Source: an uncultured Candidatus Saccharibacteria bacterium
GTDB lineage: Bacteria; Patescibacteriota; Minisyncoccia; JAHISW01; Tagabacteraceae
Length of the DNA stretch: 64,000 bases
Reading direction: 5' to 3'
NCBI GenBank assembly: GCA_964601305.1
Contig: CAZRMW010000001.1
Location: forward strand, 135,450-199,449
Part shown: positions 27,290 to 51,195 of the stretch, piece by piece
How the letters are laid out: each line of letters begins with the position of its first letter
How positions within the stretch are numbered: position 1 is the first letter of the stretch
The notes under the pieces: model-generated
The model's database searches: none
What the model was told of the DNA's origin: nothing
What the model saw: only the letters and a program-made list of their open reading frames with translations
Made by a program: the position numbers and the translations under genes

Positions 27290-27310
27290 TCTTGCCCCGC
27301 TCGGCGGGGT
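27290..27310. repeat. GC-rich hairpin CTTGCCCCGCTCGGCGGGG (plus adjacent TTTGTTAAGGTTCA) between groEL and the next gene
   Basis: Reverse complement identical to 40571..40590. Confidence 0.6.
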
Positions 27311-27333
27311 TTGTTAAGGTTCAAGCCTAATTT

Positions 27334-29040
27334 CTACATCATGCCTGGCATACCACCCCCCATTCCTGCTGGCATTGCTCCCCCACCACCTGCACAAGAG
27401 CAATCGTCTTTTTTAGGAGCATCAGCAACCACCACCTCTGTAGTTAAAAGCATAGACGATGCAGACACAGCGTTTTCTAAAGCACTGCGCGTCACCTTTA
27501 CTGGATCTATAATTCCAGTTCTTAGCATATCGTTTGCGATTTTATCTGTTCTCGCATCATAACCCATATTTGAAGACTTGTTTTTCTCTACTTCTTCTTT
27601 TATGGTGTTCACAATTACAGAACCATCTTCTCTTCCTGCATTTATTGCAATTTGCCTCATTGGCTCTTCTATCGCCCTAAGCAAAAGCCCAAAACCAGCC
27701 TTAAACTCATTTGCAATGTCTCTGCTAGGGGTTTTTATTTTCCCTTCTTTAAAATCTTTTTCTACAATAGTCTTCGCTTTTATTAAAGCTGTACCTCCAC
27801 CCGGCACTATTCCTTCTTCTATGGCAGCCTTTGTAGCCTTTTGTGCATCTTCTATCTTAAATTTTTTATATTTCATTTCTGTTTCTGTAGCTGCTCCAAC
27901 CTTTATTACCGCCACTCCGCCAGAAAGCTTTGCAAGCCTCTCTTCTAATTTTTCTCTATCAAAATCAGAATCTGTATTTTCTATTAAAGTTTTTATTTGT
28001 TTAGCTCTGTCTTCTACTGTATCTTTCTTGCCTTTGCCTCCAACTATCGTAGTGTTTTCTTTTGTAGAAATTACCCTGCGCGCACGGCCAAGCATATTGA
28101 GCTCTGCACTCTCCAATTTCATACCAGTCTCTTCAGAAATTAATTTGGCGCCAGTTACCACAGCAAGGTCTTCAAGCATTTCTTTTTTTCTGTCTCCGTA
28201 GCCAGGAGCCTTTATTGCCAAAGCATTGAAAGATCCACGAAGCTTGTTTACTACAAGAGTAGCCAATGCTTCACCATCTACATCTTCTGCAACAATTACC
28301 ATATCTTTTTTGCCAGTACCTGCAAGTTTTTCAAGAAGTGGTAAAATTTCGTTTATAGAAGATATTTTTTTATCTGTAATTAAAATGTGAGGATTGTCAT
28401 AAACTGCCTCCATTCTTTCTGCATTTGTAATCATATACGGAGAGCTATAGCCTTTATCAAATTGCATACCTTTTACCATTTCGCTTTCTATACCAAAAGA
28501 TTGAGACTCTTCTACTGTAATTACCCCATCTTTGCCAACTTTCTCAAAAGTATCCGCTATTATTTCGCCTATTTCTGGATCTTCGGCAGAAATATTAGCC
28601 ACATTTAAGATTTCGTTATGGCTTTTTATTGGTTTTGCCATTTTTTTAAGAGCTTTTACCACATTATTTGAGGCTGTTTCTATGCCAAGTTTTACACCTA
28701 AAGAATTTACTCCCAAAAAGTTTGTAAGTTTTAGCCCTTCACGAATAATTGCTTGCGACAAAACTACAGCGGTAGTTGTACCGTCTCCTGCTATATCGTC
28801 AGTCTTACTAGAAACTTCTTTTACCATCTCTGCACCAATGCCCTCTATTTTATTTTCTAAATCAATTTCTTTTGCAATTGTTACTCCATCGTTTGTAACA
28901 TCTGGAGCACCAAAACTTTTACCAATTACTACGTTGCGCCCTTTTGGCCCAAGTGTAATTTTTACGGCATCTGCGAGTGTGTCTATGCCTCTTTTAAGTT
29001 GTTTTCTTGCCTCTTCGCTAAAAATTATTTGTTTTGTCAT
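27334..29040 (-). CDS. groL: Chaperonin GroEL
   Basis: [38 protein letters not shown]...GGGMPGMM. Confidence 0.95.
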
Positions 29041-29233
29041 GATAGATTTTCTTAGATGAGCGAAGCGAATTTTTGAAAATCATCACCCCGCCCTCTTATA
29101 TTTTTTCTTTATTTGTTAATCATTGTTATTGTTAATACTTCTTTTCTTTGTTTATAACCCCATGATTCTTGTGTATGAGGGCGGGGTAAAGGTTTGCCTA
29201 CGAAATTTTAAATAAAATTTCGGGCAATTCGCT
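29041..29233. repeat. Long imperfect inverted repeat filling the groES-groEL spacer (arms GCGAATT.../...AATTCGC and CACCCCGCCCTC/GAGGGCGGGGT)
   Basis: Left arm 29059-29096 and right arm 29176-29233 are reverse complements around an AT-rich core of about 80 nt. Confidence 0.6.
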
Positions 29234-29548
29234 TTATTCAATTACTGCTAATATGTTACTTTCACTTATTATAAAATATTCTTTGTCGTCGACTTTTATT
29301 TTTTCAGAACTATACTCTGAAAAAACCACGAGCTGATCTTTTTTGATGTTCATTGGAATTTTTTTACCATCTTCAGAGATTCTCCCCGGACCTACAGCTA
29401 CCACATGGCCTCTGTCTACTTTCTTCTCGCCCCTCACCGTGTCTGGAATGATTATTCCAGTTTTTGTTTTTTTAGTTCTTTCCTCTTCTGAAAGCGGTTC
29501 TATTAAAACTCTATCTGCAAGAGGTGTGATTTTTGTTTGTTTTGGCAT
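29234..29548 (-). CDS. groS: Co-chaperonin GroES (start re-placed at MPKQTKITPLADRVLIEP)
   Basis: GroES family sequence. A start at 29611 would run through an upstream terminator hairpin. Confidence 0.85.
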   Translation of the reverse strand: MPKQTKITPLADRVLIEPLSEEERTKKTKTGIIIPDTVRGEKKVDRGHVVAVGPGRISEDGKKIPMNIKKDQLVVFSEYSSEKIKVDDKEYFIISESNILAVIE

Positions 29549-29584
29549 AATATTTTTATTAAAAAGTGTTATTTTATAAAGGTA

Positions 29585-50372: not shown

Positions 50373-50474
50373 TTTGATACTCCTTTTATTTAGTTTTCAA
50401 GCTTGTTCGCCTCCGGCGATGTCTATTTTTATTGTATAACTCGTATTTTTGCGGTCAATTGACTAATTATAAGA

Positions 50475-50509
50475 AAACAAAAAAGCCGAATCTGCAAATT
50501 GCATCCGGC
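50475..50509 (-). terminator. Terminator of 50525..51178
   Basis: GCCGGAUGCAAUUUGCAGAUUCGGC followed by UUUUUUGUUUUC. Confidence 0.6.
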
Positions 50510-50524
50510 CTTTATATTCATTTT

Positions 50525-51178
50525 TTATTTTACTTTGTCGGGAAAATTTTTTTTAACAAAAGAAGAAAGCTGATCGGAATCCATACCGTCAATTAAAGGA
50601 ATTTCTCCGACAATATCTCCCTTACCATCAATAAGAAACAAGTGAGGAATGGAAGCTATCCCTGTTTTAGACAAAATTTCATACCCATCTTGATCTTCCA
50701 GCATATATGCTTTCCCACCGTATATCTTATTAATGGCCTTGTAATATATTATGCCTCTGGGAGAAAACTCTACTCTTTCTCCTTTATCACCTCTCATAAC
50801 AGCCTCTACCATTGCCACGTTAAAATCTGGATTATTTTCTTTAAATATTGCTATTACAAAAATCAAACCAGCGGTATCTATAACACCAGGATTATATTTG
50901 GTAATAACGACAAGCGTTGGTTTTTTACCGGTAACACTCTCTATATCAACAGCTTCCCCTTCTACATTGCTCATACTAACGAGCCTTAGATCTTTTAAAG
51001 ATTTTTCAGGAACAGCAGGTTTTTCCACCTCTTTTACAACAGGAATTTCCTCCTCTTCTACACTTGAGCTAAACGCCCACCCCGAGGGTGCCACCAAGCA
51101 TACAGACATAAAAAACAATAAAAACAAAATATGTTTGTTTTTCATTTTTGCCATCCTTTTGTTTTTGTTAAGGTTCAT
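50525..51178 (-). CDS. Secreted thioredoxin-fold-like protein lacking CxxC
   Basis: Signal peptide. IPHLFLIDGKGDIV strand typical of the TlpA fold. No Cys. Confidence 0.4.
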   Translation of the reverse strand: MNLNKNKRMAKMKNKHILFLLFFMSVCLVAPSGWAFSSSVEEEEIPVVKEVEKPAVPEKSLKDLRLVSMSNVEGEAVDIESVTGKKPTLVVITKYNPGVIDTAGLIFVIAIFKENNPDFNVAMVEAVMRGDKGERVEFSPRGIIYYKAINKIYGGKAYMLEDQDGYEILSKTGIASIPHLFLIDGKGDIVGEIPLIDGMDSDQLSSFVKKNFPDKVK

Positions 51179-51195
51179 CCGCCTTCGGCGGGTTC
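51164..51195. repeat. TTTGTTAAGGTTCA motif plus CCGCCTTCGGCGG hairpin (variant of the GC-hairpin family)
   Basis: Same TTTGTTAAGGTTCA motif as at 27311..27327. Confidence 0.5.

Follow-up and report, generated by a model that had tools for sequence, protein, structure and literature searches.

A dispersed G+C-rich hairpin with in-frame copies in ychF and a HAD hydrolase gene of a Patescibacteria genome: a candidate REP-like miniature insertion element

Copies, sequence and fold of family A in the window

The window analysed here, a 64,000-nt stretch of contig CAZRMW010000001.1, carried dispersed copies of a short G+C-rich hairpin, ACCCCGCCGAGCGGGGCAAG, termed family A, two of them in frame within ychF and within the gene of a HAD hydrolase. 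Window G+C was ~34% (and not the 30% given for the genome in an earlier sequence-only reading of this DNA), with a strongly negative GC skew. A search with CCCCGCCGAGCGGGGCAAG, allowing up to 3 mismatches, returned four core copies, starting at 27291, 30188, 39104 and 40572, to which a hairpin at 29611 is added as a plausible diverged copy. Chance expectation for core copies was 0 (no match in 100 dinucleotide-preserving shuffles), as the sequence-only reading had supposed; the near-identical 19-23-mers that it had placed at 27290, 39104 and 40571 were confirmed, its coordinates for the family being up to 10 nt off. The copies and their host genes are:

27290-27309 (19-mer 27291-27309), minus strand: family A copy, exact (A+CCCCGCCGAGCGGGGCAAG), intergenic
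30188-30207 (19-mer 30188-30206), minus strand: family A copy, 2 mismatches, outer C-G pair changed to T-A, compensatory
39104-39123 (19-mer 39104-39122), minus strand: family A copy, 1 mismatch (loop A>G), in frame in the HAD hydrolase gene
39037-39834, minus strand: HAD hydrolase gene hosting family A
40571-40590 (19-mer 40572-40590), plus strand: family A copy, exact, in frame in ychF
40009-41103, plus strand: ychF
29611-29631, plus strand: plausible diverged family A copy ACCCCGCCTAACGGGGTGAAG, 16/20 positions matching plus one indel, stem kept

A stem of 6 bp closed by a 3-nt loop was predicted for each of the four core copies (-9.5 to -11.4 kcal/mol). In family A, the stem was of G+C and closed a CGA loop; an A on the 5' side and a CAAG tail were both conserved. 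The element amounts to a single 15-nt hairpin with its tails, and is asymmetric, CAAG standing on one side only. The CAAG end (CTTG on the opposite strand) was present in 4/4 core window copies, and was GAAG in the diverged copy at 29611; copies from other genomes cannot bear on its conservation, the search pattern having itself included CAAG. All six frames of family A were free of stop codons, and it can therefore enter a protein surface loop in either orientation with the frame left intact.

Some copies were set within genes; others lay in 5' leaders or behind stop codons, and one occupied the loop of a terminator. The copy at 27291 lay between the groEL stop (24 nt before it) and the GTG start of the next gene (13 nt after it), with an AAGGAG ribosome-binding site directly adjoining its CAAG tail. 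The open reading frame (ORF) 29653-30159 began with TTG, and the copy at 30188 preceded that start by ~28 nt; this copy is the compensatory T/A stem variant that the sequence-only reading had located at 30198. The diverged copy at 29611 was nested in the loop of an intrinsic terminator (CCCCCGTGT...ACACGGGGG, 29597-29643) between a 168-aa gene and groES, antisense to local transcription, and the nested fold was predicted at -35.4 kcal/mol (z -6.1). Selection on the hairpin, earlier argued from the compensatory change, is thinly supported, by that one compensatory pair at 30188 and the stem kept at 29611.

All five window copies fell inside 13.3 kb of ~81 kb, adjoining a gene for a transposase of the type associated with repetitive extragenic palindromes (REPs), RAYT-1, described below (p about 0.003, a rough estimate). 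No further copies were found in 8.2 kb added to the left and 9.2 kb added to the right of the window. An Rfam search of the window returned three tRNAs only, and family A matched no known RNA family; the motif CCCCGCCGAGCGGGGCAAG occurred in no paper of the searched literature.

Two relatives, at 29620 and 51178, had been proposed in addition to the near-identical copies. The first corresponds to the copy at 29611-29631. The second was a different hairpin (CCGCCTTCGGCGG, 51179-51191), unlike family A in sequence. The 14-mer TGAACCTTAACAAA beside it was truly common to this site and to that at 27.3 kb, but 478 14-mers recurred in the window, which leaves the sharing not significant, and the order of hairpin and 14-mer was reversed between the two sites; on these grounds 51179 was not counted as a family member, nor TGAACCTTAACAAA as part of the element. 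On the minus strand, 27240-27400 and 51110-51270 both had TGAACCTTAACAAA by a G+C hairpin ahead of genes with similar signal-peptide-like N-termini (MRKHTLFFGLVFF and MKNKHILFLLFF); these upstream regions may be paralogous, and not part of family A.

In-frame insertions and occurrence in other genomes

In alignments, the residues PAERGK (6 residues, 18 nt) were present in the YchF of the window only, and absent from 39 close homologs and from E. coli YchF; likewise, 7 extra residues (TPPGGAR region) were present in the HAD hydrolase of the window only, and absent from 49 homologs. The peptides encoded at the two copies, DPAERGK in YchF and TPPGGARSKG in the HAD hydrolase, were those already assigned in the sequence-only reading, for which the same residues in distant homologs were to count against lineage-specific insertion; no such residues appeared. 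The reading frames differed (CCC GCC GAG... in YchF vs CC CCG CCG... in the HAD hydrolase), so that the conserved unit is the nucleotide sequence and not the peptide. As judged from the alignments, both copies are lineage-specific in-frame insertions. The best matches of the two proteins placed the organism among the Patescibacteria (CPR). If the 18 nt stay in the mRNA, the predicted peptide stretch is GEDPAERGKLELIK.

The nearest related genome (L140) read GAG GAT|TTT GAT at the YchF site, and had the motif in neither ychF nor the HAD hydrolase gene. Eight contigs of the same population, assembled independently and drawn from different samples and studies, all had both insertions, the loop variant included, which excludes an artefact. 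No exact insertion boundary or target duplication could be resolved, as removal of 18 nt at several offsets gave equally plausible ancestors.

The metagenome-assembled genome (MAG) CAZPYD01 was syntenic with the window (FtsK-RecA-S18-SSB-S6-RAYT-x-YchF-HAD), with RAYT-1 77% and YchF 73% identical. It carried family A within TrpRS (L028) and directly before tRNA-Pro (L068), and its YchF and HAD sites were empty. This pattern of sites filled elsewhere and empty at YchF and HAD points to mobility of family A.

Exact-match scans of species-representative genomes and Joint Genome Institute (JGI) metagenomes returned ~17 further distinct sites with the same 19-mer, in contigs of 30-46% G+C. Nearly all were labelled Patescibacteria (Saccharibacteria, Tagabacteria, Parcubacteria, a single-cell genome and others), and two had other, unconfirmed labels. 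Alignment to solved structures gave clean 6-residue gaps at the 19-mer in TatD, TrpRS, IscU and uL4 of other Patescibacteria; alignments were ambiguous on insert length for a hydrogenase (L039), MiaA (L088), KsgA (L095) and Fpg (L071). Where the length of the inserted unit could be resolved, it was mostly 18 nt (6 codons). Copies occurred in both orientations (~9 sense vs 7 antisense) and in four of the six frames, with translations PAERGK, TPPSGAS, LAPLGGV and ACPARRG. The base before the 19-mer was A in 13/15 sites found without requiring A, and the base after it was C in 10/21. Intragenic sites, inside long ORFs, amounted to ~12/21, below the value for random insertion in a gene-dense genome and far above that for classical REPs.

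Hits of the 19-mer in G+C-rich DNA were rejected as family A: local G+C was 51-75%, chance occurrences are expected there, and several hits were the same conserved coding segment; these were therefore treated as native sequence or chance.

At 1045-1105 of L103, the 5' half of tRNA-Lys was duplicated in truncated form ~70 nt before the intact tRNA-Lys, with a family A copy where the D-loop would be; the site resembles an integration scar into which the hairpin came later. A tRNA intron or D-loop insertion was rejected here, because deleting the insert recovered no tRNA. At 19165-19187 of L147, the MiaB-MiaA fusion gene of a single-cell genome had a hairpin CAAG-CCCCGCCGGGCGGGA, with the tag on the opposite side of the stem, and so may be related to family A, having been flipped or having diverged. 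The MiaA gene of another genome (L088) had a canonical family A copy.

RAYT-like transposases and palindrome families B and C

A RAYT-like gene lay ~1.1 kb from the family A copy of ychF, and a paralog just past the end of the window. The genes and the palindromes around them are:

41707-42387, minus strand: RAYT-1, RAYT-like Y1/HUH (IS200-like) tyrosine transposase gene, PF01797, with HUH and tyrosine motifs
42394-42422: family B palindrome ATCTGTGGGAAGTTCAACTTCCCACAGAT, directly upstream of RAYT-1
42159-42187: family B palindrome inside the RAYT-1 coding sequence, encoding SVGSSTSHR, position kept in orthologs
41654-41682: palindrome B' ATCTGTGCGACATCCGATGTCGCACAGAT, directly downstream of RAYT-1, outer stem as in B, inner stem co-varied
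40971-40999: family B palindrome in frame in ychF
L129 7553-8251, just past the window end: RAYT-2, a paralog 30% identical to RAYT-1

RAYT-1 passed the PF01797 cut-off (32.8 bits vs 23); its best NCBIfam match, REP_Tyr_transpos, scored 33.8 bits, below the cut-off of 80. The HUH motif was HFH and the catalytic tyrosine was in YIYMNP. RAYT-1 had 4530 relatives at E<=1e-5, and those with a source name were labelled as Patescibacteria transposases. In CAZPYD01, palindromes again lay upstream of, inside and downstream of the RAYT-1 ortholog, in a matching layout and with compensated stems. RAYT-1 with its bracketing palindromes is in the REPtron/TIRtron arrangement described for REP-RAYT systems (PMC3733652, PMC3337134).

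RAYT-2 was flanked on both sides by a perfect 21-nt palindrome, CACCGATGTCGGACATCGGTG (family C; L129 7519-7539 and 8262-8282), the copies lying ~0.9-1.7 kb past the window end at 64000. The genome of the window therefore had at least two RAYT-like genes, each with its own flanking palindrome family. RAYT-2-type genes in two other genomes were each flanked by their own, different perfect palindromes, the single-cell genome JBHPEK01 had three RAYT paralogs and dispersed family B copies, and palindromes flanking RAYT orthologs and paralogs elsewhere were lineage-specific and co-varied. No report of REP/RAYT systems in Patescibacteria was found in the literature searched.

The family B insert in ychF was 33 nt long, and none of the 40 homologs had the 11 residues that it added. 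A single YchF protein thus had two unrelated palindromic insertions, A and B. In an AlphaFold2 model of the window YchF, of moderate confidence (mean predicted local distance difference test score, pLDDT, 71.6), PAERGK was placed at a helix-helix junction in the helical domain, and the family B insert in an unstructured loop (pLDDT <50); both modelled positions are consistent with tolerated surface insertions. In two other genomes, families A and B were 1-2.6 kb apart, and one of these had A in IscU and a B-like copy in IscS.

Three contigs of the same population (L132-L134, independent assemblies) all ended at ~42346, inside RAYT-1 between two family B palindromes, which suggests further copies elsewhere, of the palindromes or of the gene, that interrupt assembly. 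Intergenic DNA of the window also had perfect palindromes of 38 nt (CAAACTACCAAAAACCTATATAGGTTTTTGGTAGTTTG, 38985-39022, just after the HAD stop) and of 26 nt (38073-38098). Further along, ORFs of 86, 90, 86 and 124 aa at 55519-56773, two of them with YafQ-toxin Pfam hits recorded in the matching contig, look like two tandem toxin-antitoxin pairs, and a patch of 42% G+C at 58-60 kb, adjoining tRNA-Met and tRNA-Asp, may be a small island.

Origin and spread of family A

With moderate confidence, family A is read as a REP-like miniature insertion element, an 18-nt stop-free unit probably moved in trans by an HUH transposase. It would be copied as DNA, in the form of a single-stranded hairpin on which a Y1/HUH transposase of the RAYT type would act in trans, with cleavage plausibly at the CAAG tag; copies within genes would be tolerated because the unit amounts to six stop-free codons. 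RAYT-1 represents the candidate class of trans-acting enzyme. As no RAYT gene flanked by family A was found, mobilisation of the family by such an enzyme is a step that we infer.

REP/RAYT is the closest known system, because of the RAYT-like gene with its own palindromes at 41707-42387. REPs carry a GTAG or CGTC tetranucleotide tag at one end, and intragenic REPs are documented in other bacteria (PMC3733652). Family A resembled them as a G+C-rich stem-loop of small size, ending in a conserved tetranucleotide on one side and in a tail of 1-2 nt on the other; its copies were dispersed, some of them within genes, and the genome had RAYT-like genes flanked by palindromes of their own. As has been described for RAYTs, RAYT-1 was single-copy and its place was syntenic in a relative. 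REPs are predominantly extragenic and number tens to hundreds per genome, often as inverted doublets (REPINs). Family A differed in its unit of 18-20 nt, which is as small as the smallest REPs or smaller, in having more than half of its known sites within genes, and in what looks like a low number of copies per genome (5 in ~81 kb).

Several results weigh against a REP-like origin. The tag of family A was CAAG/CTTG and not GTAG or CGTC, with the end architecture the same, and no REPIN-like doublets were seen among the copies found, the nearest inverted pair being 1447 nt apart. Family A flanked none of the RAYT-like genes among the loci examined, a small part of each genome: RAYT-1 had B/B' and RAYT-2 CACCGATGTCGGACATCGGTG, four RAYT-like genes in related genomes were flanked by other palindromes, and none of the five RAYT-like loci retrieved had family A beside it. 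Conversely, no RAYT-like ORF was found in the ~8-kb loci around family A copies of other genomes (tblastn and a two-sequence hidden Markov model). Families B and C co-varied with their RAYT between lineages, as cognate REPs normally do, whereas family A was identical in every genome in which it was found, among exact matches, which leave diverged copies elsewhere unsampled. Other MAGs had 1-2 exact copies each, and no extra near-copies were found in ~190 kb of loci flanking copies in other genomes. No filled/empty polymorphism was found among population contigs 99-100% identical to the window, all of which were filled.

The sequence-only reading had likened the family to Rickettsia palindromic elements (RPEs) that tolerate in-frame insertion. 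This was right as an analogy: in both, a palindromic repeat of an A+T-rich reduced genome lies in frame in conserved genes and is presumed to be translated into tolerated segments. There was no sequence similarity, the host belongs to Patescibacteria and not Rickettsia, and family A adds only 6 residues (18 nt). RPEs, at roughly 100-150 bp, are far longer than the unit of family A (18-21 nt). The short RPE-4 and RPE-6 are themselves CGTC-tagged REPs (PMC3733652).

Other small elements were compared. The small dispersed repeats (SDRs) of heterocyst-forming cyanobacteria, proposed by Elhai et al. in 2008 as the smallest mobile elements, are reportedly 21-27-nt hairpin repeats with compensatory changes, nested self-insertions and a proposed movement via RNA, and are confined to that one cyanobacterial group; they are not known to be linked to Y1 transposases. 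Family A would share with SDRs the very small hairpin-forming dispersed repeat and the compensatory change, but differs in phylum and sequence, and no nested self-copies were seen, only one copy inside an unrelated terminator hairpin. Mobile G+C clusters and byps of fungal mitochondria are G+C-rich palindromic mini-insertions of 30-55 nt in A+T-rich genomes, sometimes in coding sequence; byps are not multiples of three and the ribosome bypasses them, whereas family A is an open 18-nt insert, presumably translated, and its host is not an organelle. Miniature inverted-repeat transposable elements have terminal inverted repeats matching an insertion sequence element and a target-site duplication, and are usually >50 bp; family A was rejected as one, being a single 15-nt hairpin plus tails with no consistent target duplication resolvable. 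Intragenic REPs and RPEs being already known, family A is unusual in three respects: its length of 18 nt, its invariant sequence from genome to genome and its host group.

A bolder reading, and a rather doubtful one, is that family A is the smallest known bacterial mobile unit, frame-neutral, invariant and spread horizontally in Patescibacteria by a route other than classical REP/RAYT co-evolution. Candidates for such a route would be a conserved or horizontally transferred HUH enzyme cleaving CAA|G, or an RNA-templated one. On this reading the unit may in addition serve as a conserved cis-site.

Alternatively, family A could be a functional cis-element, either an RNA-stabilising or RNA-processing hairpin or a DNA site of a chromosome organiser, its sequence fixed by a trans-acting factor and insertion serving only to make new sites. 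The 19-mer was identical across several genomes while RAYT-flanking palindromes co-varied, copies seemed few per genome and were clustered in the window, and two window copies shortly preceded start codons while one closely followed the groEL stop, all of which would fit such a role. It is nonetheless unlikely: copies lay in both orientations relative to transcription, in unrelated housekeeping genes at positions without common context, and the element is asymmetric, with its tail on one side. An insertion mechanism making the sites would still be required, so that a cis-role adds to the mobile-element reading and does not replace it.

Spread through an RNA intermediate, a small hairpin RNA being reverse-transcribed and inserted with no Y1 transposase, is quite unlikely. 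The four core window copies were sense to local genes, and so transcribed, and the size and hairpin form resemble those of SDRs. The sense bias was gone once other genomes were included, and a sense-strand RNA element was rejected on that count. No reverse transcriptase was found among the 10 ORFs scanned, out of ~70 in the window, and HUH transposases with cognate palindromes were demonstrably present.

Short-patch ectopic gene conversion, or templated repair from nearby copies with no dedicated enzyme, would account for five copies within 13.3 kb and for the short A-rich and AAG microhomologies at some junctions, but is very unlikely, as the flanks had no usable homology and the unit occurred in unrelated genes of different contigs and genomes. 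An artefact (assembly or library chimera), or native sequence arising by convergent codon usage, for which the ordinary coding use of the 19-mer in G+C-rich genomes might speak (for example a recurrent D/N-P-A-E-R-G-K in several actinobacterial-type contigs), is already refuted by the alignments, in which homologs of YchF, the HAD hydrolase and the relatives' proteins had no such residues, and by the 8 contigs, chance in DNA of 30-46% G+C being essentially zero (estimate for collections).

Patescibacteria have tiny streamlined genomes, yet palindromic insertions of recent date stand in essential genes (ychF here; in relatives those of TrpRS, uL4, IscU and TatD), and RAYT-like HUH transposases are abundant in the group, as the relatives of RAYT-1 indicate. 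If confirmed, the REP-like reading of family A would offer a tractable case of selfish hairpins reshaping proteins without breaking them, simple strain-level markers for metagenomes, and small pairs of HUH enzyme and hairpin (families B and C, possibly A) open to biochemistry. Were family A indeed a frame-neutral smallest unit, it would represent a distinct way to add short loops to essential proteins in reduced genomes.

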